Positions 7,429 to 39,394 of a stretch of 64,000 bases of DNA are shown in pieces (the stretch's first letter is position 1; each line of letters begins with the position of its first letter). The notes below the pieces were generated by a model. The model worked only from the letters and a program-made list of their open reading frames with translations. It had not been told where the DNA came from and searched no databases. The translations under genes were made by a program, and so were the position numbers. Source of the DNA: Proteobacteria bacterium UBA981 (lineage in GTDB: Bacteria; Pseudomonadota; Gammaproteobacteria; Ga0077536); contig DBBP01000026.1 in the NCBI GenBank assembly GCA_002292285.1, positions 30,209-94,208 on the forward strand, read 5' to 3'.

Positions 7429-7462
7429 CCGGGCAGGCGGAGTTTCCCCGTATGGCAGCGCC

Positions 7463-12333: not shown

Positions 12334-12481
12334 GTCAAGTTGGGGTCGCTTGCCAGCGATTCGCCGTGCCAGGCTGATTGCCTACACAGCCCGTTCTCCC
12401 TGCCGAAAGCCGCAACAGACCGTGGACGATTGCAGCGAATTTCGCGTTGATAATCCATTCCCCGTCGGAACCATCTATTTG

Positions 12482-13741: not shown

Positions 13742-14040
13742 AGGGATTGCTCGAGAAAATATTGAAATTCGGAAACCGGCGACGGCTATTCGACATCGCC
13801 ATCGAAAAGCATACGTGTTGTTGTCATTTCTTTCGAGGTACCACGGCGGAGCAATTCAAATTTGGCGCTTTTAGTGAGTACGGTTCCACGCTAACCGACG
13901 CAGTTCTCGATCGCTGGGTGATGACGATCTATCTGTCGGGAATCGAATTCATGCCGAGGTAACCGGTTATTTTAAGCGCGGTCTATTCGGATACCGCTGA
14001 TATTTCGCACAGGGAGATATTCACGGCTTTCGTCAGCCTA

Positions 14041-16212: not shown

Positions 16213-16531
16213 TGAAGTCTTTAGACGTCGTTAGCAAAATGCACGGGCCCCGCTCATGGGCTACGATTCGACAGGGCCCCGAACGCTGCCCGCATTTCCA
16301 GTCGTTGTATAGGGAATTATTTGCACAGCAGGCGGCAGCAAGGTGGATCATTGACTTAGAATATAGCTTTTTGGGGCAACGTGTTGTCCGGCGCGGGTGG
16401 TGCTTGCACCCCGAAAATTACGATATCGTCGACCCTATCGACCGCACTCATTTCTCAGGCGGTCGCCTGCGCAGAAGTGTGTACTCTTCAAGTAGACCAG
16501 AAGTTTCCGTTATAACGAGTTCGCTACAGAT

Positions 16532-17596: not shown

Positions 17597-17851
17597 GCGA
17601 CTAGAGTGTTGCTAGCAAGGTGAACGCTTGAGCTTAGAAGCGGTGCTCGGTACTTCGAGCGCTTGTACAGATTCGGCTCCAAGGCGGTCATATATTGGAT
17701 AATCAGCGCGGCCAGCTACAGTGAGAAAGGAAAGCTATCATTCAATCTTCAGGTCTTTAGCTTGAGCGTACTTCGGCTGTTACCGCCGACGGCCACGCCA
17801 ATCCCGGTTCGGGCGATAGCTGCTGCGATTGCTGCAGACCAGCGCAGTTTG

Positions 17852-18970: not shown

Positions 18971-19045
18971 CGGTGCGGATCCGCGGCCCCGGATCCTGAT
19001 TGCCTATTTGCACCGCTTTTCGCGAATGAGAGTTTAACTTGTCAG

Positions 19046-20137
19046 TTATTCGCGGACGGGTTTCGAGCTGAACTGACGGATTAACAGAAGGGCCACAACG
19101 GCACAGGCGAACTTAAATAACGTGCCAATCAAAAAGATCAGGTGCGTATGCACCGCCAGAACGCCGGCGTCCGCTTCGCTGTATCCCAGCAAGATAAGGG
19201 CGTATAGCCAACCGACTTCGTGTGTGCCGATATTCGCGACAGCACGTATGGGTAGCACGCTGATTGGCAACTGTAACGCGAACACAACAGCACACAGCGC
19301 GAAACTCACGGTTTGATCGAGCGCCTTTATGACGAAAAAAAAGCCAGCCACAAGGACAGCAATACTGAGTAGCGACAAAAACGTGGCGTTGTAGTAAGTG
19401 CGTGGCTTAACAATGCTGACTGCGGTACGTAAAAATTGGTTGGCAAAAGCACGCAAAGCGTCGAAGTATCGGGAGACGCCCGGCAACGACGCACGGGAGG
19501 AATCTTCTGCAGAGGCTGTCTCCTGATGGCCATTGATTCGTTGCCTTACCAACCCGTTCAGGGCCGAACTGTAATGTAACCCCAGCGGCACGAAGAGTAC
19601 GACGAGACAAACTACGATCCCGGCGATTGATAGTGAGTGCGGGAGGACCGCAACAAAGAACGAGCCGGCAACAAGAAAGCAAATGGTATAGATGCTCAGT
19701 TCTATGAAGCGATAAACGAAAAGTGCAGACGTCGCGGCCCCCATTTCGATACCGTTCCATCTCTTTAACAGCCATATCAATACGGGTTCGCCAACCCAAC
19801 CGGGCAACAGATCCCTGACCGTGGCCTGCGTGAACAGCGTGCCGAGTACTCGATGTGGCGCATCTAAAGACAACATCAAGTGCAGGCGAATGGCGCGGAT
19901 GGCGGTAAAAACGATAATCGTAAGCAGATAGCCTGTTAAATAAGTCCAGTCGAGCGTGAATTCTGCAAGTTGTTCCAGGGACAAATCGGTTTCCCGAATG
20001 AACAACGCCAAAAGACCGAAACCAAATAACGACCCGGCCAGCAAATGCCGCAGCGTTTTTGAACGTACTCCTGGCTCGTTAGCGTTTGCCAGCTTGGCTT
20101 GGGAGCCTTCGTATTTTTTGGAGATTGGCAATTTCAC
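19046..20137 (-). CDS. Flippase-like membrane protein (lysylphosphatidylglycerol-synthase TM-region / UPF0104 family)
   Basis: Multi-TM protein (GSLFGFGLLALF..., IAGIVVCLVVLFVPLGL..., FALCAVVFALQLPISVLPIRAVANIGTHEVGWLYALILLGY). The maximal ORF reaches 20293 but would overlap the upstream gene by 111 nt. An in-frame GTG at 20137 is a plausible start, but the start is uncertain. Confidence 0.6.
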   Translation of the reverse strand: MKLPISKKYEGSQAKLANANEPGVRSKTLRHLLAGSLFGFGLLALFIRETDLSLEQLAEFTLDWTYLTGYLLTIIVFTAIRAIRLHLMLSLDAPHRVLGTLFTQATVRDLLPGWVGEPVLIWLLKRWNGIEMGAATSALFVYRFIELSIYTICFLVAGSFFVAVLPHSLSIAGIVVCLVVLFVPLGLHYSSALNGLVRQRINGHQETASAEDSSRASLPGVSRYFDALRAFANQFLRTAVSIVKPRTYYNATFLSLLSIAVLVAGFFFVIKALDQTVSFALCAVVFALQLPISVLPIRAVANIGTHEVGWLYALILLGYSEADAGVLAVHTHLIFLIGTLFKFACAVVALLLIRQFSSKPVRE

Positions 20138-20181
20138 GTTTTTACTGTCGCCCCGGGCAGGACCCAGGCTACGTTTACGGC

Positions 20182-21525
20182 CTAGGTAACCAAGCCTTGA
20201 GAAAGTCGCTCGGCAGCGTCGCGGCCCTGGCGGATCGCGGTGTGTGTGCCTCGATAATCCGGATAAACTTGCGCCTGCGTTGCGATTAGGCAATTCGCCA
20301 TCGGCAATTCGGGTGGCGGAACGCTCTCACCATATTTTTTCAATATCGCGGGCTGCGCGTCGGCCGCTCGCCACGTGTGCGCATCGATGACCCAGTCGGC
20401 GTCAAAATCGGCGAACATTTTTTCCAGGTGAGCGAGTCCATACGCGATGTAGGCGTCGTCGTCCATGTCGTAGGCTTCCATTCCGGGCGCTGTACTTTGT
20501 GACAGATAAATGATGTGTTCGCCGTTGTATTCTGATGGTGGTCGGAATTGCGTGTGCTCAATGACACCGACAAAAGGAAAGGCCAGATCCCGGTTTGACA
20601 GCCAGTAACAATTAGACAGCGAACGCTTTGACCGAATAATGATTCCGCGCGAATCAAGATAGGCAATCGCGTTGAACGCATCCAGGTTCTGCTGCGGGAG
20701 CGTGTGGGCTAACAGACGTGCTGCCTCAGGTAGCGGAGTCGTAATAATCATGCCATCAAAGGCATGGGCGCTACCGTCGACTTGCAATGTTATCGAAGTA
20801 TTGGCTGACGGGTCTGCTCTGACCAGCTCTGCGCGGGTCTGTTTTCTAATAACGCCGTTTTGAGCAAGAATGTGCGCCTCAATATCATCGAACAATGCAG
20901 AAAACCCACCCTCGTAGTAGGACGATGTCGAGCCCTTCTCACTACGTCCCTTGCGGGCCTTATTACTTTGCAATTTCTGCCACACCCACACCACAGAAAT
21001 CTCGTCTGCGTAGTTTCCGAACCTTGAAACCAATAACTGCTTCCAAAATTTTTCGTAAACATTGTGGTTTCCGTATTTCGTGAACCAGTCCTTGACCGAA
21101 TAGTCGTCTATCGTACGCCAATCGGTTACCGCGCCGAGCTTCCAGATGCCGAAAGCCATGCGCGCCGATTCGGTGAGCGATAAATCTGTATAGCGGAAAT
21201 GATCTAAAGGGTTACGTGTTCGCCAAACGGAATCACGAAAGTAGAATCCATGCTCCATGGAAATGCTGAACTCTTTGGCTTTCAGTCCGAGTACGTCAAG
21301 CAGCCATTCGAAGTTCTCGTCGCCGGCATACCATTGATGGTAGAACTTTTCGAGCCTGTAAGCGCCAGTATCGAAACTTGATGCAAGGCCACCGAGCTCT
21401 GGCTGACTCTCAAAAATCGTGACGCCAATTCCTTTCTCCAATAGCGAAAGGGCTGCGGCGGCACCGCAGAATCCGCCGCCGATGATAGCCACCTGCGGAG
21501 TGGAGTTACTTCGAGGTGCTGTCAT
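20182..21525 (-). CDS. FAD/NAD(P)-binding oxidoreductase (amine-oxidase / protoporphyrinogen-oxidase / UDP-galactopyranose-mutase-like fold)
   Basis: N-terminal dinucleotide-binding motif VAIIGGGFCGAAAALSL...VTIFES...LGG. 447 aa. Confidence 0.7.
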   Translation of the reverse strand: MTAPRSNSTPQVAIIGGGFCGAAAALSLLEKGIGVTIFESQPELGGLASSFDTGAYRLEKFYHQWYAGDENFEWLLDVLGLKAKEFSISMEHGFYFRDSVWRTRNPLDHFRYTDLSLTESARMAFGIWKLGAVTDWRTIDDYSVKDWFTKYGNHNVYEKFWKQLLVSRFGNYADEISVVWVWQKLQSNKARKGRSEKGSTSSYYEGGFSALFDDIEAHILAQNGVIRKQTRAELVRADPSANTSITLQVDGSAHAFDGMIITTPLPEAARLLAHTLPQQNLDAFNAIAYLDSRGIIIRSKRSLSNCYWLSNRDLAFPFVGVIEHTQFRPPSEYNGEHIIYLSQSTAPGMEAYDMDDDAYIAYGLAHLEKMFADFDADWVIDAHTWRAADAQPAILKKYGESVPPPELPMANCLIATQAQVYPDYRGTHTAIRQGRDAAERLSQGLVT

Positions 21526-21648
21526 GCTGTTTTAACTTAAGCGTTTCGGAAAGCATTGTGTCGCCCGGGAACGTTTGCCGCGCGGAAGCGAACATCGGTG
21601 GTCCGTCCGATGTGCGTTTAGCTCGGCGCTCAGAGGTCGGTAAGCCAC

Positions 21649-22449
21649 TCAGTATTCGAAACCGTAATGCCTGGCTTCGGCGGCGCAAATTTTCATGATG
21701 CTGTTTGAATCAAGAACTGGGCCAGCCGCTCTATGTTGGTCAAGCGTAGGGTTCTCGCGTCGTACGTTAATTGAAGTTTCTGAGATACGCTCGGGGTCGA
21801 GTCCGAGATGTTCGACCATATGCCTGGCCAGTTCGACTTTGACGCCTCGCTCGAAAAACAAATCTTCATAGCGGATTGTAAGGCTGGGTTCGGACGAAGA
21901 TGCTATAAACTCGCGAATTCGTGCATTGCGGTATACCCAACGCCACGCAAATCGCTCTGCTTCAGACCACCGACGCCAATCTGGATTCCCGAATTTTGGA
22001 CGGTCACGTGCAAATGGAAGGATTGGGACAAGTGACCGACGCCAGCTATAGCTGCCAAAGCCTATTGACGAGCGTACCCACGCCACCGGGTGCCGAATGA
22101 GATGAATAAGTGCAGTCGGTTTCACGACCGACAGGCGGCTGCCCATGTCAACAATAAAAGGATTGATTTCAACCAACAGGTCTTGATTGCTGCTATTCTG
22201 CAACCAGCTTTCGCGGGAGCTTTTAAACCAGTTTGTCGCAAGTTGAAGCCCCGGACGAGACACGCTGGGCGGGCATTGAGTGGCTATGTTGTTGAGTATC
22301 CTCAAAATACGTGAGGGCTCGCGCTCTTGGGCTACAACTATTTCAGGATAGAGCTGTTCCAGCAGTTTGGTTATGAACGTCGAGCCGGTTCGCCCGGCGG
22401 TCAGGACGTGTGCGTATCGTGAACCGGAATATCTGGCAATTTCTGACAT
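21649..22449 (-). CDS. PAPS-dependent sulfotransferase-like protein
   Basis: 266 aa. 5'-PSB-like P-loop LTAGRTGSTFITKLL near the N-terminus and a 3'-PB-like LIRHPVAWVRSS segment. Confidence 0.65.
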   Translation of the reverse strand: MSEIARYSGSRYAHVLTAGRTGSTFITKLLEQLYPEIVVAQEREPSRILRILNNIATQCPPSVSRPGLQLATNWFKSSRESWLQNSSNQDLLVEINPFIVDMGSRLSVVKPTALIHLIRHPVAWVRSSIGFGSYSWRRSLVPILPFARDRPKFGNPDWRRWSEAERFAWRWVYRNARIREFIASSSEPSLTIRYEDLFFERGVKVELARHMVEHLGLDPERISETSINVRRENPTLDQHRAAGPVLDSNSIMKICAAEARHYGFEY

Positions 22450-22727
22450 CTTTGCTGAGTTGCACTACTTCGATATGGCGTTTCGGGGGGCGCGGGAGAC
22501 ATATGTCTCTTGCAGTTTGTCAGCAGCATTTTACATGGCTTCCAATATTAAAGTGTGCGAGGAGCGACCCGATTTCTGCGATTCGAAACGCGGAGAGCGG
22601 GAACTGGAGCAGATTAGAATCGGGATGCAGATGCCTGGGACGTTGCTCGATGAGACTGATGCGGCGCGGTTTAGCGGCCAGCAGTTATCTCCAAAACGAT
22701 AATCAGCTTGGATAATTACGGCGGTCA

Positions 22728-23549
22728 ATGGCTCAATACTCTCTCAACCAATACGTAGATTTGTTACGCGCGCCTGAAGGCGACAACGGTCCATTGATTC
22801 TAGACCGCGACACCCTGCGGACCGAAGATGGAACAACAAGTTTCCCGGTCGTCGACGGCATCCCACAAATGCTGGGCGCGGAATTTGATCGCGAGGTGGC
22901 GGCGCTCTATGAGGGAAATGCCGCAAAGGGCGGATTCGAGCACTCGACCGTTGGGTATAAGTTCCCGAGTCATTACACACGAATGATCAAGGCGTTCTCC
23001 GTCTTATGCGCACGCTTCGACGAGAACTCAATCGTCGCAGATATTGGTTGTGGACATGGTCAGATGACCAGCGCTATGGCTAAGAAGTTACCGGTGTTCG
23101 GCGTGGATCTATCGAACAATATGTTGCATGAGGCCAAGGTAAACGGTTTGATCCCGTTGCGCGGAGATGCCTCCGCGCTGCCGTTTCGCGACGGCGTGCT
23201 TGACGGTGTCGTTTCGGCTGAAGTTGTGCAGCATTTGCCGGACCTGTACGAGATTTTTGCAGAGATGGCTCGCGTGACCCGTCCTGGCGCAACCATACTG
23301 TTGTCGACATTGAATCGGAAATCGATCGTCAGACGCACAAATCGGAAGCTTCGCGGGTTGGACCTGATCGGACCGGCTCGCCTTCGCGCTATCGAAGACT
23401 TTACCGCTGTGCTGGAGGGCTTCCCGCTTCGTATCGAAGCCGTCTGCTGGGTCATGTCGCCGCTTCCTTTCAACCCGGTTGTGGAAAATGTCAACTTTCC
23501 GCTGAGTGCGCTCGCGCAGAACTATGTATTGTCGATCCGGCGCGCTTAA
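22728..23549 (+). CDS. Class I SAM-dependent methyltransferase with N-terminal Trm112-like (FPVVDGIPQML) segment
   Basis: Motif I VADIGCGHGQMT, post-I acidic residue (VFGVDLS), motif LPFRDGVLDGVVSAEVVQHLPD. The N-terminal about 50 aa resemble the Trm112/YcaR-type motif. Confidence 0.8.
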   Translation: MAQYSLNQYVDLLRAPEGDNGPLILDRDTLRTEDGTTSFPVVDGIPQMLGAEFDREVAALYEGNAAKGGFEHSTVGYKFPSHYTRMIKAFSVLCARFDENSIVADIGCGHGQMTSAMAKKLPVFGVDLSNNMLHEAKVNGLIPLRGDASALPFRDGVLDGVVSAEVVQHLPDLYEIFAEMARVTRPGATILLSTLNRKSIVRRTNRKLRGLDLIGPARLRAIEDFTAVLEGFPLRIEAVCWVMSPLPFNPVVENVNFPLSALAQNYVLSIRRA

Positions 23550-23628
23550 TCGGAACTTTCTGCAGCTGAGTCACTCCGTCCACACGCCGTCAGTTGACTA
23601 ATGGGACGGGGAATCTTGCATTGCAACT

Positions 23629-25515
23629 ATGAATAGCGACGCCGAATTCAGCGTTCCGTATCCGCCCACCAGTCGCTCATACTGGATTGGCGGTGTGTTT
23701 ATATTCTTGGTTTCGGTCGTGGTGTACGCGCCCGGAAATTTTTTCGTTTCCTGGGACCTTTCAACATACCTGGCGTGCGCCCGCAATCTCCTCGACGGCG
23801 CCGGTTTCGTCGATCCTGTTGGACAAGCGGTCGAGAGTCGACTGGGGTTCATAGTGATCCTCGCCGGCGCACTGATCGCTGGCGGGGAATCCCTCGCTAC
23901 GATCGCAGCTGTCGAGACTCTCGGCAGTGCGCTTTTTGTCACGGCCATGTTTCTGCTCGCCTATCGTCTGTTTGGGCCGTTAATCGCTTTTGTGGCCAGC
24001 GGCCTGTTTTTACTATCCCCGGATTGGAATTTTTGGTTACCCCGGCATCTGGACCCGTTCTGGCCCGGGTTCGTACTTTGCAGTCTCGTGGCTTTGCTGA
24101 ACACCAAAGGACGCTTCGAGTGGATGGTTGGAATAGTCGCGGCCTGCTGGCTCGTGTTGGCTTATTCAATCAAGGAAACCGCGATACTTTTTCTACTCGG
24201 GTATGGCGTGCTGCTGTATCTCGGTGCGCTCCCTGGGACAAAAATTCGAACTTGGTGGTTTGTCGGTTCGGTTGTGTTTGCTGCGAGTGTCTTCATTGGC
24301 CTGCGCATATTCGCCGAGGCGGCACCTGTTAACCCGTACGCGGGCGGCCGTCTGAATGTGATTGCAGAACTCTTCAACGACCGGAGCCTCGTTGGCGGCA
24401 TTCTGGCCAGTGCGCAGTGGGCAGCAGTGGGCATCGTGCGCGCGATGTTCGGTTTTTTTGGTGACAGCCGTCTGTTGACAGTGATGCCTTTGTTGCCTGT
24501 GTTCGCCGTCGGATTTGTCATGCACTGCGTGCTGGCACTCAGGGGCCGACCCAGCGACCAGATCATCGTAGTGATGTTCATCGCCTATTTGCCGTTCATG
24601 GCGTTGATCGGCCAGATGAATTTTCGACCGTCCCAGAATCTCTTCTCTGTCGCGCTGATGTATATCTCTATTGCTGCGCTGATCGTTCGTGCAGGGGGCT
24701 TGCTGACTTCCCGACGCTGGTGCCAAGTCTTGAGTGTGGCCATCCTCGCGCTGTTATGCGCGGCATGGCAGGTGGACAACGGCGTTCTAACGATTTCCAA
24801 AAGCTCAGCGCGTAATTATTTTTGGCGAGCATGTTGTGCCCGGCCGGGCACACAGGCATTTGCGCCGCGACTTCGCGGTACGGCGGTCGCAGCTTGGGTG
24901 AACGACAATATTCCACCTGGTGAAACCATCGTAATCGGTGACGCGCCGACGCAGCATGGCATTAATTTCCTGAACGGTCAGCGCAATAAAATCGCTTTCC
25001 CGCCGATTTTCAATCTGACTTTTTCCGGGGCCTGGGCGGATTCTCCACTTGCGCCGCCGGGCTCTGCAAACTACGTCGTCGCGGCAGTCTGGCCCGGGAA
25101 AATATTTCCGCGGCCAGTATTTTTGCTTGAACCGGATTGGTTCATCGAACGCATGGCAGAGTTACAGGCCACCACGATCATATTGTCCAGCGTTGGCATC
25201 GACCCGGCGATCGCACATTGGTTACGTGAAGGTGCTGGGCTCACGCCATTGGCGACAATTGCCAGGCGCAAACGCCATTACGACGTGTACGACATCTCGC
25301 CCTTGCTATCGCGCGAATTTTCGAGATCTCGACAATTGATAGTCAATGACGATTTTTTGCAATACCTGCGGAGAGTCAAAGAAGAGCACCCGGAACATTG
25401 GCAGTGGTATTTGGACGAGCTGTTTGACGACAGATTGAATCTTGACGCCAAAGTTGCGGAGCAGGTGGCGGCGGGTGAATTACCGCCCGAGTTCGCCGTA
25501 CTACCTCGCGAGTAG
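23629..25515 (+). CDS. GT-C fold membrane glycosyltransferase (ArnT/PMT-like, GT39/GT83-type; polyprenyl-phosphate-sugar dependent)
   Basis: 628 aa. Ten or more N-terminal TM helices with an ArnT/PMT_2-like pattern (SWDLSTYLACARNLLDGAGF; ...LLSPDWNFWLPRH...), and a C-terminal soluble domain of about 230 aa. Confidence 0.6.
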   Translation: MNSDAEFSVPYPPTSRSYWIGGVFIFLVSVVVYAPGNFFVSWDLSTYLACARNLLDGAGFVDPVGQAVESRLGFIVILAGALIAGGESLATIAAVETLGSALFVTAMFLLAYRLFGPLIAFVASGLFLLSPDWNFWLPRHLDPFWPGFVLCSLVALLNTKGRFEWMVGIVAACWLVLAYSIKETAILFLLGYGVLLYLGALPGTKIRTWWFVGSVVFAASVFIGLRIFAEAAPVNPYAGGRLNVIAELFNDRSLVGGILASAQWAAVGIVRAMFGFFGDSRLLTVMPLLPVFAVGFVMHCVLALRGRPSDQIIVVMFIAYLPFMALIGQMNFRPSQNLFSVALMYISIAALIVRAGGLLTSRRWCQVLSVAILALLCAAWQVDNGVLTISKSSARNYFWRACCARPGTQAFAPRLRGTAVAAWVNDNIPPGETIVIGDAPTQHGINFLNGQRNKIAFPPIFNLTFSGAWADSPLAPPGSANYVVAAVWPGKIFPRPVFLLEPDWFIERMAELQATTIILSSVGIDPAIAHWLREGAGLTPLATIARRKRHYDVYDISPLLSREFSRSRQLIVNDDFLQYLRRVKEEHPEHWQWYLDELFDDRLNLDAKVAEQVAAGELPPEFAVLPRE

Positions 25516-25620
25516 GGGCCACCATCGTTTGTGTCATCTGCGCTTTTGAACGTCCGTATTTACCGGCGGCGTTCGATGTTCGAACTCGCTTTGGATCGCT
25601 AATCGCGATGCTTATGCCGC

Positions 25621-27666
25621 ATGCAACTGAATCGGCTGGCGATTGAACAAAAAAAGCGACGTGAGGACCGGAGCGAACTAGGGCCAAGCGGGCTCTTGAG
25701 CCTCACAATCAAGCAGAGATGCTGGAAATATCGTATCGGGCTGCGAGTTTGTTCCGTAATAGAATTAATCCGTGATCAACGATTATTTCATTTGTCCAGG
25801 CGGAACTACCGAGTGCAAATAAACAGGGACATTCACGGCGTCGTATGTTGGTCGCTCGTAGTGCTGACGTTACTACTGGTACCGATATTCGCGCTGACTA
25901 CGGGGCCGGATTCCGTATTTTACCTGGAGAAGGGGCTCGACCTATATTTGGGGCGAGGATACGACCATCCGACACGGGGCCCGATTTTCGCGAGCATACT
26001 CGCGACCGCTTTCTCGGTACTGGGGCCCTCCGCGATTGTCGCCACAATCGTTGTTCGCACGTTTTTTCTTCTCAATGTATTAATGGTGTGGCTTTTAGCC
26101 AGACAGTTGTTCGGGGCTGCGGCCGCGAACTGCAGCGTGCTGTTGCTATTGAGTGCCGCGTTCGTGCATGAGTCGACCGGGACGATCGGGCTTGATGCGG
26201 TCTATCCCTTGTTCGTTCTAATCGGGATTTACTTTTCCGTCGTGAGCTTCGAACACGAACGTATCTGGCCAGCTATCGCTGCCGGAGCGAGCTTCGGAAT
26301 CGCGGTCCTTACAAAGGAACTCGCCTTACTCCACGTTGTCTTCCCGTTTGCTTATCTAGTGTTCGACGCGACCCTCAGAAACTCACGGAGGGCCTGGGGC
26401 AATGCTGCGGTCCAATATCTGGTCTGTGCTTTGGCGGTCACACCTTGGCTAATATTTCTCGCGCTGGGCGACGACGGCGTGGCCACCATGGTGGGGAAGG
26501 GCGGCCCCAAGAATCTGCATAAGCTTGCCAGCCTTGACGGGAATTCGTTGATCGATTCAATCAATTTTTATCTCAGCGGCATGCCGCAGTTTTTCCAGCG
26601 CTACGTAGCGCGCGAGTCCGCCATTTGGCCACTGTGGGCGGTTGCATGGGTCTATATGGGCTTCCTCGCTGTGCGCGAGCGCTCGGCGCGCGCTTTGGTC
26701 GTGGCGATTGCTTTGTTCATACCGGTTATGGTCGCCGAAGGGCACGTCTCCATCCGCATAGGACAGAACCACATAGCGTACTGTGTGTCGGTTATCGCAA
26801 GTGGGGCGTTATTGGGCAGAATAATTGACTACGGGTCGGCTCGTGTCTGGCCCAGGTTCGCGCAGGTGTGCCTGTATGTCATGGTCGTGGCGATCTCTAT
26901 CTATCAATTGACTACTGGTCGCGACAACGCACTGAATCGCATTAAGGGCAATTCGACTAGCGCGTTTTTGCTGACTCAAGGGACACTACCGGCCTGGCAA
27001 GTAAAAGGTACCCTCAACGATGATTCGCGGCGCGCCGCAGAATGGGTTTCCGCCAATCTGCCTGAAGGCGAACCGATAGTTGCCGATTATTTGTTGTTCC
27101 GTTCGATGTACGTGCAGTCAGGAGGTCGTTACCCGATCTACAAGTTCCCGTATGACAACCTCGACGTACAGTTGTCGTCGCAGCCGTCAGCGGCGTTTAA
27201 GGATGGCGACAACGAAGGACCGTTATTGTTTCTTTGGAGCCATGTCCGCAGGGATCGATTTTGCAATTGGCAAAGTTCACCATGCATCCTTTTTCACACG
27301 TTTTACGAAGGAACGTTTGCGAAATTTATGGCTGAGCGCGGCGCCCGCTACGTGGTTCTGGGTGCACGCACCTGGTTTCTCAGAGAGTACTTCGACGCTC
27401 ACCCCGCAGCGACACTGAAGCAAGTCATATCGGAGCGGATTCGCATTTACTCCGTTGATGTCGATCAGTCGGTTGGGGAATTCCCGCTGCGCGTAGGCGA
27501 GGAGGTACCGCGGTTGCTTAACAAGGTGGTCTCAGAAGTTCCTGCCGCCGTGCCTTGGTTCGACGAGACAGTACTGCATCAGACACTTCATCTTGAATTG
27601 ATCATTGCTGATCTTGTCAACGGTCCATCGCGCATCGCGCTTTTTCCTAAAGTACCGCCGCTCTAG
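25621..27666 (+). CDS. GT-C fold membrane glycosyltransferase (ArnT/PMT-like), second tandem copy
   Basis: 681 aa with the same architecture as the preceding gene (LGRGYDHPTRGPIFASILA..., multiple TM helices, large C-terminal soluble domain). The first 64 codons look non-coding; an in-frame GTG at 25813 preceded by AGGCGGA is a likely start. Confidence 0.6.
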   Translation: MQLNRLAIEQKKRREDRSELGPSGLLSLTIKQRCWKYRIGLRVCSVIELIRDQRLFHLSRRNYRVQINRDIHGVVCWSLVVLTLLLVPIFALTTGPDSVFYLEKGLDLYLGRGYDHPTRGPIFASILATAFSVLGPSAIVATIVVRTFFLLNVLMVWLLARQLFGAAAANCSVLLLLSAAFVHESTGTIGLDAVYPLFVLIGIYFSVVSFEHERIWPAIAAGASFGIAVLTKELALLHVVFPFAYLVFDATLRNSRRAWGNAAVQYLVCALAVTPWLIFLALGDDGVATMVGKGGPKNLHKLASLDGNSLIDSINFYLSGMPQFFQRYVARESAIWPLWAVAWVYMGFLAVRERSARALVVAIALFIPVMVAEGHVSIRIGQNHIAYCVSVIASGALLGRIIDYGSARVWPRFAQVCLYVMVVAISIYQLTTGRDNALNRIKGNSTSAFLLTQGTLPAWQVKGTLNDDSRRAAEWVSANLPEGEPIVADYLLFRSMYVQSGGRYPIYKFPYDNLDVQLSSQPSAAFKDGDNEGPLLFLWSHVRRDRFCNWQSSPCILFHTFYEGTFAKFMAERGARYVVLGARTWFLREYFDAHPAATLKQVISERIRIYSVDVDQSVGEFPLRVGEEVPRLLNKVVSEVPAAVPWFDETVLHQTLHLELIIADLVNGPSRIALFPKVPPL

Positions 27667-27673
27667 GTCATGG

Positions 27674-28675
27674 TCAGGGTCCGCGTACCCCCTCAGGCGC
27701 CTGCAGATTAAGCTTCAACTCGCTCGCATAATCCGACATAGGTTGGAATTCGAAGTCGTGCAGCAGGCGACAAAGTTTTGTATGCGCCGATTTTAACCCC
27801 GAGTAGTGGGACAGACGTTCTCGCGCAGTAGTGCATGACGGGCGCGGGTGATCAGGATCAAATTCCCAAGGATGAAAATAGAACACGACCGGCTCTCCGG
27901 CCCTGTTTTTAGAAGCTGTAATGCGTTTAACGAGAGAATAGGCGAGATTACGAAACCACACGCCGCCCGAAAACGGCAAGCGCTTCGCCCCTAGCGCAAC
28001 CGTTGTTATTGGTATTTCCACGAGAGAACCGCTGCCCGCGCCAACCACCGACGGGTAGGGGTTTGCTCCGGGCATGCCGTACAACGGGGTACGCACTGGA
28101 AAGACACTCGAATCATAGGATAGGCCACGATCTTGCAGCGCTTGCCAGAACCATGTTGTGTCGTCGCTAACCGAGGTATAGGCCGCCCGATAACCTTGAA
28201 TCGGCGTATCGACCACCGCCCGAACCGCTTCGTAATTTCGCTCTAAATCTTCGCGAAACTCGATTTCCGACATTTTGTCGACCCGCTGATGTCGGTTCCC
28301 ATGAAGGCCGATCTCATGACCGTGGCGGGCAATCTCTCGAAGTACATCCGGGGTTAATCTGGCGATCTCCCCAACGACAAAAAAGGTCGCTTTGATGCCG
28401 TACTGTTGAAATGTTTCGAGCAGGGTGCTGGTTTGGCGTTCTATGCGACTTTCGAATGTCGGCCAACGAGCGTATTGCACCGAGGTGCTCGTCAGCCCCT
28501 GGTACCACTCCTCGAAATCAACGCTGATGCAGTTGCTGATCATGCATCGAAGTATCTCATTTTTAGCACAAAGGCGTTCGGTGAGAATTCGCCCGTTCTT
28601 GTTTGGATGACGGAAATTCACAACAATCTGTCCGGCAGCCGGGGTCACGCTTGGCGTGCCATCGGGCCGCGACAA
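27674..28675 (-). CDS. Polysaccharide deacetylase (NodB-homology/CE4 family)
   Basis: Motifs ISVDFEEWYQ, ...EIARHGHEIGLHGNRHQRVDKMS..., LVEIPITT. 333 aa. An internal Met at about 28546 is an alternative start. Confidence 0.75.
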   Translation of the reverse strand: MSRPDGTPSVTPAAGQIVVNFRHPNKNGRILTERLCAKNEILRCMISNCISVDFEEWYQGLTSTSVQYARWPTFESRIERQTSTLLETFQQYGIKATFFVVGEIARLTPDVLREIARHGHEIGLHGNRHQRVDKMSEIEFREDLERNYEAVRAVVDTPIQGYRAAYTSVSDDTTWFWQALQDRGLSYDSSVFPVRTPLYGMPGANPYPSVVGAGSGSLVEIPITTVALGAKRLPFSGGVWFRNLAYSLVKRITASKNRAGEPVVFYFHPWEFDPDHPRPSCTTARERLSHYSGLKSAHTKLCRLLHDFEFQPMSDYASELKLNLQAPEGVRGP

Positions 28676-29025
28676 CGACGCTGGTTTAGCTCGAATTCTG
28701 TAGCTTTGGGGGGCAACGACGTTACACCGCTCAAGCGCCCCGCGTTGGAGTTGGTGTACGCAAGTCGGTATGATCGAGCGGGCCGTACGAGACGATTAAT
28801 TCGGGCCTTGCGGAGAAGTTCGGCCATCCGGATGACGCATTGCGGACCGCACGACCTCATGCCGACGGCGGGCCGCCAATTGCCCGCGCATTCGTGGGCC
28901 GGCGTTCTCCACAAGCGGTGTTCCATGATGACTTGCAAGCTAGACATTCAGAGGTAGAAACGGAGTTCCCTCGATGCGACTGAGTTCCCGTTTCCGTTTC
29001 GACAGGAGCCGCCAACCACGGTCCG

Positions 29026-30126
29026 GTGGCGAACCACTCACCATGGCGTCAGCGTGGCTGCACAACTCATATGTTTTTTGATTTCTCAAATTTGCGCGCT
29101 TTCGGCTTTGGTGTCGGGGTGTTGCTATTTATCGGCATATTCATCGAGCTGAGGCGGCATCGAACCCGGCGGGTAAGTCCAGCCCCGGTTATTGTTTTCT
29201 CGCTCGTTCTAATGGCCGTTGCCCTTAATCCAGGGTTTGTCGATGCCCCCGCCAGATTTTTGGGATTTGAGGGAATTCCGCGCGGACGGCTACTCGCTTT
29301 GTTGCTGGTATCGGCGTTGCTCGTGTGGCCGGTGGCGATGCGTAACCGGAGTAAGATCAGCCAACTCCACACAGACCTGCTGGCGACTATCCGGCAGTTC
29401 GCCCTCCTCAATTTTCGCTCTACCTATGGTCAGTCGATCGATGCCGGCGCGATTTGGGTCGTCATACCTGTATTTAACGAAGTACAAAATATTCCTTCTG
29501 TGGTGCGGGAATTACCGGCGGTCGTAGGCGATGCGCCGGTGATTGTGCTCATCGTCGATGACGGCAGCTCAGATCAGTCGAGCGCCGTCGCTACGCAGGA
29601 GGGTGCCCGGGTCGCGCGATTACCACTGAATTGCGGCGGCGGTGTTGCGCTGCATGTTGGCTTTGAACTGGCCGTAAGTTTCGACGCCAGGCTTGTCGTT
29701 ACCATGGACGGAGACGGCCAGCATGATCCGCATCAGGTTAAGGACCTCGTCGAACCGATATTATCCGGCGAGGCAGACTTCGTTATCGGCTCGCGCATAC
29801 TCGGAGTGAACAATTCGCCCAATCGAACGAGAGCGGTGGGCATCCGCGTGTTTAGCCGGCTGATAAACCTCTTGACCGGCACGAGAATTACCGATTGTTC
29901 AAGCGGATTTCGCGCGATTTCTCTTGATGTTTTGACGGCAGTCAAGCTGATCGAGCCGCAGTACCACACGCCAGAACTCATAATCGCCACGGTTAAGCGC
30001 AACATGAATCTGGTCAAAGTGCCGATTCAAATTCGCCCGCGATTGTCCGGCGAAAGCAAGAAAGGCGCGAATCTCAAATATGGTTTCATGTTCGCACGCT
30101 CAATCGTCCGTGCCTGGCTTCGCTGA
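29026..30126 (+). CDS. GT2-family polyprenyl-phosphate sugar synthase (DPM1/GtrB/ArnC-like) with about 130-aa N-terminal two-TM extension
   Basis: Catalytic domain from about residue 145: IPVFNEVQNI...VIVLIVDDGSSDQS...TMDGDGQHDP (DxD/DAD-type motifs). Two hydrophobic helices precede it. Confidence 0.8.
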   Translation: MANHSPWRQRGCTTHMFFDFSNLRAFGFGVGVLLFIGIFIELRRHRTRRVSPAPVIVFSLVLMAVALNPGFVDAPARFLGFEGIPRGRLLALLLVSALLVWPVAMRNRSKISQLHTDLLATIRQFALLNFRSTYGQSIDAGAIWVVIPVFNEVQNIPSVVRELPAVVGDAPVIVLIVDDGSSDQSSAVATQEGARVARLPLNCGGGVALHVGFELAVSFDARLVVTMDGDGQHDPHQVKDLVEPILSGEADFVIGSRILGVNNSPNRTRAVGIRVFSRLINLLTGTRITDCSSGFRAISLDVLTAVKLIEPQYHTPELIIATVKRNMNLVKVPIQIRPRLSGESKKGANLKYGFMFARSIVRAWLR

Positions 30127-30590
30127 CCGGTGAGCTGCCGGCTTGTTCATTGGGATGCGTGGCAGCGTCGGAGCATCAGCGCGCGGATCGTACCCGATGG
30201 AGCCTTCTCAGCGACCGCGTACCGATCACCCCCTTGAACATTGAAATCGGCAGTCACTGACGAGAAAACTGAGCGGGTATTGGTGTCTTTGGCCGCCCCC
30301 CACATGGTATTATCCCAGTCGCGCGACGAATCCTTACCCTCTGGACGCGGCCGTATTAGCGCATCAGCCAAATTCTTTGTCGGGCGGTGCCCGGTTAGGG
30401 CGTTCACCGTCGTGATACGTGCGTTATTCGTAGTACCGGGGCGCCCGATTCTTGCGCGTTACAACCACCGCTAAGCGTCTTAATGCCGCGCAGCAAGCGT
30501 GCGGCGTTCAACCTGATCGAAATCGACTGCCGCAGATGCAACATCGAAAGCTCAATTCAACCGCCAGCAGCCGGGGTCACATACCAAACC

Positions 30591-31676
30591 ATGAGTGGAG
30601 AACCAATGCTCAGTAATTATTTTGCTGGTGCAAGAATCGCCGTGACTGGCGCTGCGGGGACCGTCGGGTCTGAACTGGTCCGCCAGTTGCTTGACCTACC
30701 CGTTGCTGAAGTGCGTGCTTTGGATAATAACGAAAATGGATTGTTCTTTTTAGAGCAAAACTATCGTAGCGAACCCAGATTGCATGCTTTCCTGTGCGAT
30801 GTCCGAGAGCGCGACAAGCTCGATCGGATGCTGCCGGGTATGGACTATCTTTTTCATGTCGCCGCACTCAAACACGTGCCTTTGTGCGAGCGCAGTCCAA
30901 CCGAAGCCGTGCGTACAAATATCCTGGGTGTCGAGAACGTCATCCGCGCGTCAATTAACGCCGGGGTTCGCAAGGTGTTGTTTACAAGCTCGGACAAAGC
31001 GGTCAATCCGACCAATGTGATGGGCACATCGAAATTAATGGGGGAACGGCTCATTACAGCGGCCAACGCCTTGACCCAGACTGAGCACGGACCAATTTTC
31101 TCAGCGACTCGTTTTGGCAATGTTGCCGGTTCAGCCGGTTCAGTGGTCCCGTTGTTCTGCCATCAAATTGCCACCAACAAGAACGTCACGCTGACGCATC
31201 GCGAGATGACGCGCTTTCTGATGACGCTCCACGAGGCAGTGCGCCTGGTGTTGCTGTCGATGACGCTCGCCAAAGGCGGTGAGGTATTTGTGACCAAAAT
31301 GCCTGTCGCCCGCATCGAAGATATCGCGCAGGTGTTAGTCGATACCGTGGGCCCTGCCTGCGGGCGCGAACCGGATTCGATCACGATCGAGGAGGTTGGG
31401 CCGCGTCCCGGTGAAAAGATGTACGAAGAGCTGGTGAGTGACGAGGAAGTCCGGCGTACTTTCGAAATTGGCGATCTCTTTACGGTCTTGCCGGCATTCC
31501 ACAACATCTATAACAACATCAGTTTCGAATATCCCGGGTATGAGAAAAAGCCGATCGACCGGGTTTATAACTCCGAGGCTGAAACAGCCATGAGCGTTGA
31601 CGATTTGCGTGAATTTATGACCCTGCCTGGCGTGTTACCCGACGATGTCCGGGCGAAGCTGCGCCTGATTGATTAG
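30591..31676 (+). CDS. Short-chain CapD/PseB/FnlA-like UDP-HexNAc 4,6-dehydratase (Polysacc_synt_2 family)
   Basis: ARIAVTGAAGTVGSEL (Rossmann), ...YLFHVAALKHVPLCERSP... (YxxxK-region equivalent), SSDKAVNPTNVMGTSKLMGERL. The maximal ORF is from 30483; the Met at 30591 gives about 361 aa. Confidence 0.75.
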   Translation: MSGEPMLSNYFAGARIAVTGAAGTVGSELVRQLLDLPVAEVRALDNNENGLFFLEQNYRSEPRLHAFLCDVRERDKLDRMLPGMDYLFHVAALKHVPLCERSPTEAVRTNILGVENVIRASINAGVRKVLFTSSDKAVNPTNVMGTSKLMGERLITAANALTQTEHGPIFSATRFGNVAGSAGSVVPLFCHQIATNKNVTLTHREMTRFLMTLHEAVRLVLLSMTLAKGGEVFVTKMPVARIEDIAQVLVDTVGPACGREPDSITIEEVGPRPGEKMYEELVSDEEVRRTFEIGDLFTVLPAFHNIYNNISFEYPGYEKKPIDRVYNSEAETAMSVDDLREFMTLPGVLPDDVRAKLRLID

Positions 31677-31688
31677 GAACCACAAGGG

Positions 31689-32837: not shown

Positions 32838-32920
32838 GCGCAGGCGCGATTCGACACCGGCGTGCTCGTCTTGCTCAGGCCGAGGAATGAAATCCAGCGG
32901 ACACGGGTAATGGACGCGGC

Positions 32921-34057: not shown

Positions 34058-34117
34058 GCATGATGATTTTGGTGCTGTTCGCAGCGCTCGAACGCCGCAA
34101 CCCACGGGCCTGATCTG

Positions 34118-36094: not shown

Positions 36095-36176
36095 TCTCCA
36101 GGGTGTTGGGCGATGCCGGTGTGCTACGCCAGAGCCTGGCCAAATGCTCGGGCCAACTGCGCGCTTTTGCGCTTGA

Positions 36177-39351: not shown

Positions 39352-39394
39352 AGCGCTGGGCTACCTGCGCGCCAGCAACGGAACTTAGATCCCG

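Follow-up and report, generated by a model that had tools for sequence, protein, structure and literature searches.

Paired GT-C glycosyltransferases in a cassette that most likely attaches an amino sugar to a cell-surface glycan

Results and Discussion

We analysed a 64,000-nucleotide stretch of DNA (the window) that carries two adjacent genes for GT-C glycosyltransferases, ORF1 (23629..25515, + strand) and ORF2 (25621..27666, + strand). Together with a lipid-sugar synthase, a deacetylase and a flippase-like protein encoded nearby, the paired enzymes are most likely responsible for adding an amino sugar to a glycan of the cell surface, and we think it probable that they form the last step of an Arn-like pathway that decorates a periplasmic acceptor. 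The two proteins are anciently diverged paralogs, referred to here as type A (ORF1) and type B (ORF2), of a rare sub-family of the PMT_2/ArnT clan.

Two adjacent paralogs of a rare family

ORF1 (628 aa) and ORF2 (681 aa, or perhaps ~625 aa if translation begins further downstream) are separated by 105 nt, with exactly the coordinates and lengths of the initial annotation. Because the ORF2 protein has exact copies called as genes on 23 metagenome contigs, where ORF1 adjoins it wherever room allows, and because a profile of 84 relatives matches both proteins (E=1e-130 for ORF1, E=3e-159 for ORF2), we regard these as real genes and not chance ORFs. The profile found no other match in the window. 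ORF1 and ORF2 are paralogous over their full length (25% identity over 614 columns, E=1e-8); ORF1 is 47% identical, also over its full length, to the protein L008_622, and ORF2 is 44-45% identical to its orthologs P0004 and P0005. Since the first ~55 residues of ORF2 are an extension absent from its 624-625-aa orthologs, and alternative starts are present at TTG 25792 and GTG 25813, the figure of 681 aa may overestimate its length.

The family comprises 242 cluster representatives (E<=1e-30) among 1.84 billion and represents a rare branch, so far unstudied, of a familiar type of system. One type A and one type B gene occur together in four independent loci (the window, L008, L010/L011 and L015), with the gene order swapped in L010/L011. 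The single relative from a reference genome set is a Gammaproteobacteria MAG, and the hosts of the family appear to be Gram-negative.

By hydropathy each protein has a hydrophobic N-terminal region of ~370 aa followed by a soluble tail of 245-250 aa, in line with the polytopic N-terminus and large soluble C-terminal domain that had been described for both. An AlphaFold (AF2) model of ORF1, built on a 2-residue variant that is 99.7% identical (pLDDT 90.9, pTM 0.92), shows about 11-13 membrane helices and then an alpha/beta domain. This C-terminal domain (~245 aa) had no Pfam match and no significant PDB match in the family, and showed no relation to anything solved, the periplasmic domain of ArnT included. 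By family-averaged charge, the N-terminus lies inside, as do the loops at ~116, 199-206, 305-307 and 360-362, and all of the conserved polar residues together with the C-terminal domain lie outside; this charge bias, along with analogy, suggests that the C-terminal domain is periplasmic.

GT-C assignment and catalytic motifs

ORF2 passes the Pfam models PMT_2 (52.3 bits, cutoff 26.1) and PMT (24.8 bits, cutoff 22.7), which are also matched by 65/70 and 13/70 family members, respectively. The HMM check proposed in the initial annotation thus succeeds for ORF2, while on the type A side PMT_2 is matched by the ORF1 ortholog L008_622; ORF1 has no Pfam match on its own, a point absent from that annotation. 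When the ORF1 model was searched with Foldseek, the top match was ArnT (5f15, E=2e-7), followed in order by AglB/STT3/PglB, DPY19, ALG9, AftD/AftB and Pmt4, and all 26 matches at E<=1e-3 were GT-C enzymes. Comparison of the family profile with E. coli ArnT by hhalign gave 92% probability (E=5e-7) over a similarity limited to about 200 TM-core columns, and paired D43 with ArnT D31, Y47 with Y35, D142 with D135 (in a common 'LDP') and K182 with K179. The family sequence profile found no solved GT-C structure at E<=1, and the ArnT equivalog model gave no match. As ORF1 has no Pfam match of its own and the family profile no solved GT-C match at E<=1, the assignment of ORF1 rests on transitivity, on hhalign and on the predicted structure of its variant. 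For the pair, Pfam, Foldseek and hhalign agree with the PMT_2/ArnT-like GT-C identity first suggested.

Published motifs of the GT-C/PMT clan include M1, an Asp in EL1 that is catalytic or metal binding; M3, RxD in EL2; M4, KE(T/Q) in EL3, of which the Lys binds the donor phosphate; and an Arg before TM10 that also binds the donor phosphate (PMC7801869). Both proteins have the loop-1 Asp, R..LD in EL2, KE in EL3 and the Arg before TM10. The conserved residues are D43, Y47, R71, R139..D142, K182-E183, R333 and Q336 in ORF1, and D97, Y101, D192, K232-E233, R379 and Q382 in ORF2; across members D43 is conserved in 81/84, D142 in 84/84, K182 in 82/84 and R333 in 78/84, and all four are found in both proteins. 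These residues correspond to the clan motifs, and the ArnT/PMT-type loop motifs noted initially are real: D43/D97 lie in the first external loop, and RxxLD, KE and the Arg are kept in both. The family resembles the PMT/ArnT/TMTC1-4 clan in having about 11 TM helices and then a luminal/periplasmic C-terminal domain, and in its EL1 Asp, EL2 R..D, EL3 KE(T/Q) and EL5 Arg motifs. It differs in having a single Asp and not DD/DE in EL1, R-x-x-D and not R-x-D in EL2, and a novel alpha/beta C-terminal domain in place of TPR or MIR.

These results bear on two other functions that could be proposed for the pair. The enzymes could supply the O-antigen polymerase and/or ligase (Wzy/WaaL-like) that the surrounding cluster seems to lack, given that no Wzx, Wzy or WaaL was recognised in the glycan cluster of the window and that both proteins are large and polytopic. 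However, an HMM assignment to a Wzy or ligase family, named initially as the result that would speak against GT-C identity, was not obtained: Wzy_C/O-antigen-ligase Pfam models matched neither ORF1, ORF2 nor any of 70 relatives. The fold matches at E<=1e-3 are all GT-C enzymes with a lipid-linked sugar donor, with no WaaL, Wzy or SEDS protein among them, the clan motifs that bind the phosphate of such a donor are present, and the Und-P-sugar synthase that travels with the family suggests a monosaccharide as donor. A role as Wzy or WaaL, already disfavoured, is thus highly improbable. We also consider it very unlikely that the pair glycosylates secreted or envelope proteins, by PMT-/TMTC-like O-glycosylation or in an OST-like manner. 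The PMT matches of ORF2 and 13/70 members, the high rank of STT3/AglB/PglB among structural matches, and a layout of 11 TM helices plus a luminal C-terminal domain as in TMTCs (PMC7801869) would fit such a role, but the OST and PMT matches are generic to the GT-C fold, the C-terminal domain lacks a Pfam or significant PDB match, and acceptor domains of the MIR, TPR or WWDYG type are absent. Moreover, the conserved neighbours make a dedicated modified sugar inside polysaccharide clusters.

The conserved neighbourhood and the proposed pathway

Gene context was counted in 8 independent loci that each offered 5 kb or more of surrounding sequence; they represent the nearest relatives of the query and were not drawn at random from the 242 clusters. 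A GT2 and/or DUF2304 gene was present in 7/8, a NodB deacetylase in 6/8, a methyltransferase in 6/8 and an LPG_synthase_TM gene in 5/8. The family GT-Cs sit in large polysaccharide clusters with several GT4/GT1 genes and a WecA/WbpL-type initiating transferase, and these clusters also hold an AT3-SGNH acyltransferase or ABC-2 exporters.

Three neighbouring genes would provide the donor sugar. The PseB/FnlA-like UDP-GlcNAc 4,6-dehydratase (30483..31676, +; Polysacc_synt_2 312 bits; TIGR03589 258 bits, below the cutoff of 408), which has the same position in L008 and is present in L007 and L015, probably catalyses the first step. A DegT/DnrJ/EryC1-family sugar aminotransferase with an ArnB-type role (17663..18970, +, with public gene calls beginning at 17762) is supported by a Pfam DegT match of the identical L001 gene and by NCBIfam sugar-aminotransferase matches of 56-97 bits; DegT aminotransferases are also found in L007, L008, L011 and L015. 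The Acetyltransf_6/FemAB-like N-acyltransferase (16532..17596, +; PF13480 58 bits; TIGR03019 165 bits, below the cutoff of 260), with counterparts in L008, L011 and L015, is proposed by analogy as the functional equivalent of the ArnA formyltransferase step. Dehydratase, aminotransferase and FemAB/GNAT-type acyltransferase would together yield an N-acylated amino-deoxy-hexose nucleotide.

The sugar would then be transferred to undecaprenyl phosphate on the cytoplasmic face by a GacJ::GacI-type fusion of DUF2304 (GacJ-like; 26.1 bits, cutoff 25.5) and GT2 (GacI/PpgS/ArnC-like; Glycos_transf_2 73.6 bits) domains, encoded at 29026..30126 (+; public gene calls begin at 29071). This protein has three N-terminal TM segments. 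Its best NCBIfam scores are to AglJ (105.6 bits) and PpgS (92.3 bits), with ArnC at 46.3 bits, and it shares 28% identity with E. coli ArnC (E=6e-15). In L008, L011, L012 and L016 family GT-Cs have an ortholog of this synthase as a neighbour (33-58% identity), and the GT2s near family GT-Cs are mutually orthologous. Both the AglJ/PpgS matches and the GacJ-type DUF2304 fusion strengthen its earlier designation as a predicted polyprenyl-phosphate-sugar synthase.

Between the GT-C pair and this synthase lies a NodB-type deacetylase (27674..28543, -; Polysacc_deac_1 78 bits plus DUF3473 136 bits; open frame reaching 28675), which the initial annotation had overlooked. It scores 252 bits to TIGR03006, just under the cutoff of 276, and is weakly similar to E. 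coli ArnD (24% identity over 126 aa, E=4e-7). To our knowledge TIGR03006, the closest named family (XrtA-locus deacetylases), has no known substrate. Orthologs adjoin family GT-Cs in L007, L008 and L012 (50-65% identity); the deacetylases of L011 and L015 are 27-30% identical to that of the window and lack DUF3473. We propose that the enzyme acts like ArnD, stripping the N-acyl group off the lipid-linked sugar in the cytoplasm; it could instead act on the nucleotide sugar or on an Und-PP-linked repeat unit. Since N-terminus and hydropathy revealed no signal peptide or TM segment in the deacetylase, the methyltransferase or the 266-aa protein described below, all three are placed in the cytoplasm.

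Further tailoring of the lipid-linked sugar may involve the class I SAM methyltransferase (22728..23549, +; Methyltransf_11 73 bits), which precedes ORF1 by 79 nt in the same orientation, and the 266-aa, weakly sulfotransferase-like protein (21649..22449, -; Sulfotransfer_3 E=0.0027, below threshold). Family GT-Cs have methyltransferase genes at their side in L007, L008, L011, L015 and L016; the 266-aa protein is 48% identical to a syntenic 266-aa protein of L008, and L011, L014 and L016 have clear sulfotransferases next to family GT-Cs. An FAD-dependent amine-oxidase-family oxidoreductase of the PRK07233 type (20182..21525, -; NF005560 364 bits, cutoff 252; Amino_oxidase 69.6 bits) keeps its position in L008. 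The LPG_synthase_TM 'flippase-like domain' membrane protein (19046..20137, -; PF03706 69.6 bits; TIGR00374 40.2 bits, below the cutoff of 43.2; open frame reaching 20293), whose family is represented near family GT-Cs in L007, L008, L011 and L014, is a candidate flippase that would carry the lipid-linked sugar to the periplasmic leaflet.

There both GT-Cs, with their catalytic loops facing the periplasm, would transfer the sugar to an acceptor, most probably the Und-PP-linked polysaccharide of the surrounding WecA/WbpL-initiated cluster. No Wzx, Wzy or ABC exporter that would bring this polysaccharide to the periplasm was recognised in the cluster of the window. Each enzyme may have an acceptor position of its own, or the two may function as an A/B pair. 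The initial annotation had envisaged a Gtr/Arn-like three-component system repeated twice, for two different sugars. The three-component logic fits the neighbourhood, but the repetition and the two sugars found no support. Two complete systems would combine GT2 29026, flippase-like 19046 and one GT-C, and GT2 50756, flippase-like 51536 and the other GT-C. Indeed, the window has two GT-Cs, two AglJ/PpgS-type GT2s and two LPG_synthase_TM proteins, the two GT2s are divergent (24% identity), as would suit different sugars, and no GT-C adjoins the second pair, which would need a partner encoded elsewhere. However, this pair (50756..52531) is located about 8.6 kb beyond the glycan cluster, with PhoX, PpnN, CrtC-like and MacB-type ABC genes in between, and its GT2 is non-orthologous, falling as an outgroup (24-29% identity) to all GT2s found with family GT-Cs, which share 33-58% identity with the 29026 gene. 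Related loci have just one GT2 alongside the GT-C pair; in L008 and L011, 16-22 kb of sequence holds the A+B pair, one GT2 and one LPG_synthase_TM gene, with no second copy of either. Two complete systems therefore seem unlikely.

Comparison with known systems

In the Arn pathway, which adds L-Ara4N to lipid A, the order of action is ArnC, ArnD, ArnE/F and ArnT (PMC12690121). The cassette would parallel it role for role, with the DegT aminotransferase as ArnB, the N-acyltransferase as the formyltransferase domain of ArnA, the GT2 as ArnC (28%), the NodB-fold de-N-acylase as ArnD (24%), a small or polytopic flippase, and a GT-C as ArnT (best fold and hhalign match). Because of its deacetylase, aminotransferase and acyltransferase we call the system Arn-like rather than Gtr-like. 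In contrast to Arn, the window proteins reach no ArnT, ArnC or ArnD equivalog score, the flippase candidate is LPG_synthase_TM and not SMR-type ArnE/F, the cassette encodes two GT-Cs, both ending in a novel domain, the GT2 shares its chain with a GacJ-type domain, and the sugar probably derives from UDP-GlcNAc 4,6-dehydration and not from UDP-GlcA. The location of these genes within a polysaccharide cluster makes lipid A an improbable acceptor.

Modification of lipid A or core by ArnT/FlmK/Lgm-like addition of a cationic amino sugar nevertheless deserves consideration, as ArnT is the best match by structure and by profile, and GT2, deacetylase and GT-C reproduce the exact logic of Arn and of Francisella FlmK (PMC12690121, PMC4402001). 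We find it rather improbable: the ArnT equivalog model is not matched, the profile similarity covers only about 200 TM-core columns, the C-terminal domain is unlike any solved one, including that of ArnT, and family members occur in large polysaccharide clusters and not in compact lipid A operons.

Decoration of a polysaccharide, the reading we prefer, has several precedents. In Gtr-/GT136-type systems a polyprenyl-P-sugar synthase, a flippase and a GT-C carry out post-polymerisation periplasmic glycosylation; a further periplasmic domain for acceptor binding is present in some of these GT-Cs, and certain loci encode several GT-Cs (PMC11127046). The cassette shares the synthase, flippase and GT-C logic of such systems (Shigella/Salmonella GtrA/B/*, Citrobacter youngae ORF12-15), but it lacks a GtrA or MATE flippase, adds a deacetylase and sugar-tailoring enzymes, and has GT-Cs of the PMT_2 clan, not GtrII or GT136, with a C-terminal domain that cannot be recognised as a CBM. 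DUF2304 is GacJ, a partner that forms a complex with the Und-P-GlcNAc synthase GacI and activates it; natural GacJ/GacI fusions are documented, and the GT-C GacL then moves the sugar to pre-made polysaccharide outside the cell (bioRxiv 10.1101/180810). The GacI/GacJ/GacK/GacL system of Streptococcus pyogenes, which adds the GlcNAc side chain of the group A carbohydrate, is thus alike in its DUF2304 plus GT2 Und-P-HexNAc synthase and its GT-C transfer. It differs in having one GT-C, outside the ORF1/ORF2 sub-family, a Wzx-type flippase and no deacetylase, and the hosts here appear to be Gram-negative.

In mycobacterial/corynebacterial arabinogalactan, lipid-linked GalNAc is deacetylated before GT-C transfer, and Rv3632 is a GacJ/DUF2304 homolog (PMC9671496). 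The resemblance to this PpgS-Rv3632-Rv3779 GalN decoration extends to the window GT2, which has PpgS among its best NCBIfam matches (92 bits). Rv3779 belongs to a different GT-C family and is the only GT-C of that system, whose deacetylase and flippase are 'as yet unidentified' (PMC9671496), whereas the cassette described here contains candidates for both.

Identity of the two tandem membrane proteins

Both genes lie exactly where the initial annotation had placed them, at 23629..25515 (+, 628 aa; ORF1) and 25621..27666 (+, 681 aa; ORF2). They are separated by 105 nt, and a methyltransferase gene that is read in their direction lies 79 nt before ORF1. The identical ORF2 protein was found on 23 metagenome contigs, and ORF1 adjoins it wherever the contig is long enough. 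By hydropathy each protein has a hydrophobic N-terminal region of ~370 aa followed by a soluble tail of 245-250 aa. Since the two align end to end, tail included (25% identity over 614 columns, E=1e-8), we regard them as old paralogs with a single architecture. A profile HMM built from 84 relatives of the two proteins, which together we call the family, matched ORF1 and ORF2 at E=1e-130 and 3e-159, and matched no third GT-C in the window. ORF2 has an N-terminal extension of ~55 aa (25621..25812) that is very basic (16 K+R in the first 68 residues) and is missing from its orthologs of 624-625 aa; translation may begin not at ATG 25621 but at TTG 25792 or GTG 25813.

Comparison with GT-C family HMMs, proposed in the initial annotation as a check, agreed with its reading for ORF2, which passes the Pfam PMT_2 model of the PMT/ArnT clan (PF13231; CAZy GT39/GT83-like) with 52.3 bits against a cutoff of 26.1 and, narrowly, the PMT model with 24.8 bits against 22.7. 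On its own ORF1 had no Pfam match whatsoever, and nothing significant was found in the PDB by sequence with ORF1, ORF2 or the family profile. Since ORF1 lacked a Pfam match and neither protein had a PDB sequence match, the assignment of ORF1 needed other evidence. Membership of PMT_2 is direct for ORF2 and reaches ORF1 solely by transitivity: L008_622, a full-length ORF1 ortholog (47% identity) from the related locus L008, does match PMT_2, and when 70 relatives were tested singly PMT_2 was passed by 65 and PMT by 13. ORF1 is among the few divergent members of the family.

An AlphaFold2 model of ORF1 was obtained with the 84-sequence alignment (pLDDT 90.9, pTM 0.92); the sequence modelled was the relative P0001, which differs from the ORF1 of the window at 2 of 628 residues. 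When the model was compared with the PDB by Foldseek, ArnT (5f15) ranked first (E=2e-7, probability 1.0, TM 0.49/0.56), followed by AglB/STT3/PglB, DPY19, ALG9, AftD/AftB and Pmt4, and all 26 matches at E<=1e-3 were GT-C enzymes. Alignment of the family profile with E. coli ArnT by hhalign gave a probability of 92% (E=5e-7) over ~200 core columns. The core of the initial reading, GT-C enzymes of an Arn/Gtr-like kind, was right, and we consider the GT-C identity of the pair close to certain. We also looked for assignment to Wzy or O-antigen ligase, which had been named as the outcome that would speak against GT-C. This identity was rejected, since no Wzy_C/O-antigen ligase Pfam match was returned for ORF1, ORF2 or the 70 relatives, and WaaL, Wzy and SEDS proteins were absent from the 26 Foldseek matches at E<=1e-3. 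No ArnT model was present among the NCBIfam matches at E<=0.01, and neither phmmer nor the family profile found the ArnT chains in the PDB. ORF1 and ORF2 appear to work like ArnT yet are not its orthologs.

Conserved residues, topology and the C-terminal domain

In ORF1 numbering, D142 is invariant (84 of 84 relatives), and strong conservation was also seen for P322 (83/84), Y47 and K182 (82/84 each), D43 (81/84), R333 (78/84) and R71 and Q336 (75/84 each); E183 is present in 64/84. ORF2 retains every conserved family residue, the equivalents of D43, Y47, D142, K182-E183, P322, R333 and Q336 being D97, Y101, D192, K232-E233, P368, R379 and Q382. The hhalign alignment places D43 on ArnT D31 (in the 'PDE' of periplasmic loop 1), Y47 on Y35, the Asp142 of an 'LDP' motif on D135, and K182 on K179. 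In the GT-C/PMT clan, EL1 carries a DD/DE motif whose first Asp is catalytic/metal binding, EL2 an R-x-D motif and EL3 a KE(T/Q) motif whose Lys binds the donor phosphate, while a conserved Arg before TM10 binds the phosphate of the lipid-linked donor (PMC7801869). The conserved family residues correspond to these published motifs.

Helix parity in ORF1 alone gave an ambiguous topology and was replaced by charge bias averaged over the family. This assigned to the cytoplasmic side the N-terminus (+2.1 net) and the loops at ~116, 199-206, 305-307 and 360-362, and to the periplasmic side EL1 (34-88, with two loop helices), EL2 (129-143), EL3 (182), a long EL4 (232-288), EL5 (330-333) and the C-terminal domain. 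The predicted topology is self-consistent, with 11 TM helices, N-in and C-out, and all motifs outside, and agrees with the published arrangement of TMTCs, one branch of the clan.

Residues 385-628 of ORF1, modelled alone from a 32-sequence alignment (pLDDT 90.2, pTM 0.85), form an alpha/beta domain followed by a helical sub-domain. Foldseek of this isolated C-terminal domain against the PDB gave no match at E<=1e-3. The best matches, to Rossmann-like methyltransferases (E=0.055, TM ~0.25), were generic and below significance, and therefore no fold was assigned. No Pfam domain was found here in any of the 70 relatives, nor any PDB profile match; a marginal GH57 match (E=0.036) was absent with a domain-only profile and was discarded. 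W423 is the sole strongly conserved residue of the domain (74/84). Other GT-Cs carry extra periplasmic acceptor-binding modules (PMC11127046), and by analogy we conjecture that this domain may recognise the acceptor.

Family size and the pairing of two types

A word-indexed homolog search gave one or two relatives per protein, with none new when the profile was used, and was followed by an HMM search run exhaustively over 1.84 billion cluster representatives. This returned 242 proteins at E<=1e-30, 516 at 1e-10 and 3497 at 1e-3, and most of the top 150 matches span the whole profile, including the C-terminal domain. By reciprocal BLAST the relatives fall into two types, A (ORF1, L008_622, L010_615, P0002, P0010 and P0029) and B (ORF2, P0004, P0005, L010_618, P0007 and P0015). 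Adjacent A and B genes were seen in the window and in L008 (A then B in both) and in L010/L011 (B then A), a Gammaproteobacteria MAG that was the sole relative in the species-representative genome set, which does not include the genome of the window. A further locus, L015, has a type A gene with a split type B gene 4 kb away among IS elements. In these parts of L015 (15964..17648 and 2115..7021), which also hold several IS/transposase genes, the type B gene is reduced to pieces of 211 aa and 350 aa with the N-terminus missing, owing either to decay of the copy or to a frameshift in the assembly.

Identity between orthologs from different loci is low (26-47% for type A, 32-44% for type B), so the A/B pair is ancient and has persisted, with the catalytic residues preserved in A and B alike. 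The initial annotation had envisaged a three-component system repeated twice and delivering two sugars, and the window does hold a second AglJ/PpgS-type GT2 (50756..51523, 255 aa) with its own LPG_synthase_TM gene (51536..52531, 331 aa; 84 bits against TIGR00374, above cutoff). This reading was not borne out. The second gene pair (50756..52531, +) is flanked by MacB-type ABC genes on one side and a Vut_1 transporter gene on the other, has no adjacent GT-C, and is found ~8.6 kb past the end of the polysaccharide cluster and behind PhoX, PpnN, CrtC-like and MacB-type ABC genes. The two GT2s of the window share 24% identity, and its flippase-like proteins can barely be aligned with each other; moreover, the GT2 at 50756 is an outgroup to all GT2s accompanying family GT-Cs, and A+B pairs elsewhere come with a single GT2. 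A complex of A and B, or one donor used at two acceptor sites, is more parsimonious than two sugars.

A conserved gene set around the GT-C genes

The first 42 kb of the window (1..42159) are an O-antigen/EPS-type cluster that ends before PhoX. It contains sugar-nucleotide enzymes, several GT4/GT1 genes, an AsnB-type amidotransferase, a WecA/WbpL-type initiating transferase (38311..39351) and a WbpM/PglF-type dehydratase (39395..41278). Before the GT-C pair are genes for a FemAB/GNAT-type acyltransferase (Acetyltransf_6; 16532..17596), a DegT aminotransferase (17663), an LPG_synthase_TM 'flippase-like' protein (19046), an FAD amine-oxidase-family enzyme (20182..21525, -), a 266-aa protein that is weakly sulfotransferase-like (21649) and a methyltransferase (22728). 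Beyond it are a NodB+DUF3473 deacetylase (27674..28543, on the strand opposite the pair), a DUF2304::GT2 fusion (29026), a PseB-like 4,6-dehydratase (30483..31676) and a UDP-sulfoquinovose-synthase-like protein (31689..32837, +; 455 bits against NF041015, below the cutoff of 575). L008 has the same gene set around its GT-C pair in identical order.

We compared gene content across 8 independent loci, each offering 5 kb or more of context (the window, L007, L008, L010/L011, L012, L014, L015 and L016). A GT2 and/or DUF2304 gene is near the family GT-C in 7 of the 8, a NodB deacetylase and a methyltransferase in 6 each, and LPG_synthase_TM in 5; a clear sulfotransferase is present in 3 (L011, L014 and L016) and a faint one in one more. 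The GT2s of the other loci are orthologs of the window gene at 29026 (33-58% identity). Orthologs of the window deacetylase are present in L007, L008 and L012 (50-65% identity); L011 and L015 have NodB proteins that are more distantly related to it. The sulfoquinovose-synthase-like gene, directly behind that of the PseB-like dehydratase, and the recurring sulfotransferases hint that these glycans contain a sugar that is sulfonated or sulfated. We noted that the PseB-like and sulfoquinovose-synthase-like pair occurs also in L015 (864..2030; 64% identity). The product of 20182..21525 passes the NCBIfam equivalog 'PRK07233 hypothetical protein' (364 bits against 252), and L008 keeps this FAD amine-oxidase gene between those for the flippase-like and 266-aa proteins.

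Likeness to the Arn pathway and a proposed route

The best NCBIfam matches of the GT2 at 29026 were AglJ (105.6 bits), PpgS (92.3) and ArnC (46.3), and it shares 28% identity with E. coli ArnC (E=6e-15). The GacJ family corresponds to DUF2304, and GacJ-GacI fusions occur naturally; Rv3632, the mycobacterial homolog of GacJ, stimulates PpgS, and in the Gac system the GT-C GacL moves the sugar onto polysaccharide (10.1101/180810). For the family GT-Cs, context speaks well for a polyprenyl-phosphate-linked sugar donor, since a synthase of the GacJ::GacI/PpgS type lies beside them in 7 of 8 loci. The deacetylase at 27674 has the NodB fold of ArnD (24% identity over 126 aa, E=4e-7), and its gene adjoins the GT2 and GT-C genes. 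The enzyme has neither a TM segment nor a signal peptide, so its substrate must be at the cytoplasmic face.

The Arn pathway uses ArnB, the ArnA formyltransferase, ArnC, ArnD, ArnE/F and ArnT (PMC12690121), and the cassette, including its aminotransferase and N-acyltransferase, matches it role for role. All six Arn-like roles are present in the window (DegT, Acetyltransf_6, GT2, NodB, LPG_synthase_TM and the GT-Cs at 23629/25621) as well as in L008 and L011, with most of the set in L015. Related amino-sugar systems are those of Francisella FlmK (PMC4402001) and mycobacterial PpgS/Rv3779, a GalN pathway whose deacetylase and flippase are still unidentified (PMC9671496). As for the Gtr system, a GtrB-like GT2 is present in the window, no GtrA match was found among the genes scanned in and around the cassette (ORFs <100 aa being partly covered), and Glucos_trans_II matched one of the 70 family members and neither window ORF.

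On the strength of the matched roles and these precedents, we propose a sequence of loading, de-N-acylation, flipping and transfer, in which we infer the substrate of the deacetylase, the role of the flippase, the sugar and the acceptor. An N-acylated amino-deoxy-hexose nucleotide would be made and its amino-deoxy-hexose loaded on Und-P. The lipid-linked sugar would then be de-N-acylated, perhaps methylated or sulfated, and flipped, whereupon A and B would transfer it to an acceptor in the periplasm, for which the glycan made by the cluster itself is the most probable candidate. Lipid A/core is another possible acceptor, ArnT being the nearest structure, but is disfavoured by the polysaccharide-cluster context and by the fact that no ArnT equivalog score was reached; it is also possible that the pair are protein glycosyltransferases, a reading for which we found no specific support. 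A fuller version of the proposed route, which we offer tentatively and think rather unlikely to hold as a whole, would make A and B an obligate hetero-pair, like Pmt1-Pmt2 or EmbA-EmbB, whose C-terminal domains recognise the acceptor. The cassette would then place a de-N-acetylated 4-amino-6-deoxy-hexosamine, possibly N-methylated or sulfated, on a surface polysaccharide of the host, probably a gammaproteobacterium to judge from its sole relative among the reference genomes, with the NodB+DUF3473 and LPG_synthase_TM proteins as deacetylase and flippase for polyprenyl-phosphate amino sugars.

Periplasmic GT-C decoration of surface glycans determines which serotype and phage receptors a cell displays and how well it resists cationic agents. 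The principle of a polyprenyl-phosphate sugar that is flipped and then transferred by a GT-C is well established, and a handful of such systems have been dissected (Gtr, Arn, Gac, PpgS/Rv3779 and GT136). New here are a rare sub-family of PMT_2 whose C-terminal domain is a fold orphan, the conserved A/B pairing, and a conserved accessory set that includes a candidate deacetylase and flippase. One conserved gene set thereby joins candidates for the two steps that still lack an assigned enzyme in the mycobacterial analogue, and the cassette offers a concrete, testable entry point.

Other features of the surrounding cluster

The polysaccharide cluster (1..42159), which may extend upstream of the window, has no recognisable Wzx, Wzy, Wzz or Wzm/Wzt-type exporter. 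A 629-aa polytopic membrane protein encoded at 7463..9352 (-) is 43% identical to a 541-aa protein of L007 and has no Pfam or NCBIfam match at a threshold as loose as E=0.1; this protein might be an exporter of the cluster that went unrecognised. In L012 the family GT-C adjoins ABC-2-type transporter genes.

Three genes resemble markers of XrtA/PEP-CTERM EPS loci, all below equivalog cutoffs: the deacetylase 27674..28543 (TIGR03006, 252 bits, cutoff 276), the acyltransferase 16532..17596 (FemAB-like TIGR03019, 165 bits, cutoff 260) and the amidotransferase 34118..36094 (TIGR03108, 585 bits, cutoff 817). Genes for XrtA itself or for PEP-CTERM proteins were not seen in the window. The window has no tRNA, rRNA or Rfam family above gathering score in its 64 kb; its GC content is 51-60% and its GC skew slightly positive throughout.

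An AT3+SGNH (OafA-like) acyltransferase is encoded at 14041..16212 (-). Enzymes of this type modify glycans on the periplasmic face, and its presence fits a heavily decorated surface polysaccharide. Finally, the products of 4781..6160 (+, 459 aa) and 12482..13741 (-, 419 aa) are paralogs, weakly GT1-like (Glyco_trans_1_2), that are 61% and 41% identical, respectively, to a 481-aa protein encoded beside the GT-C in L007.
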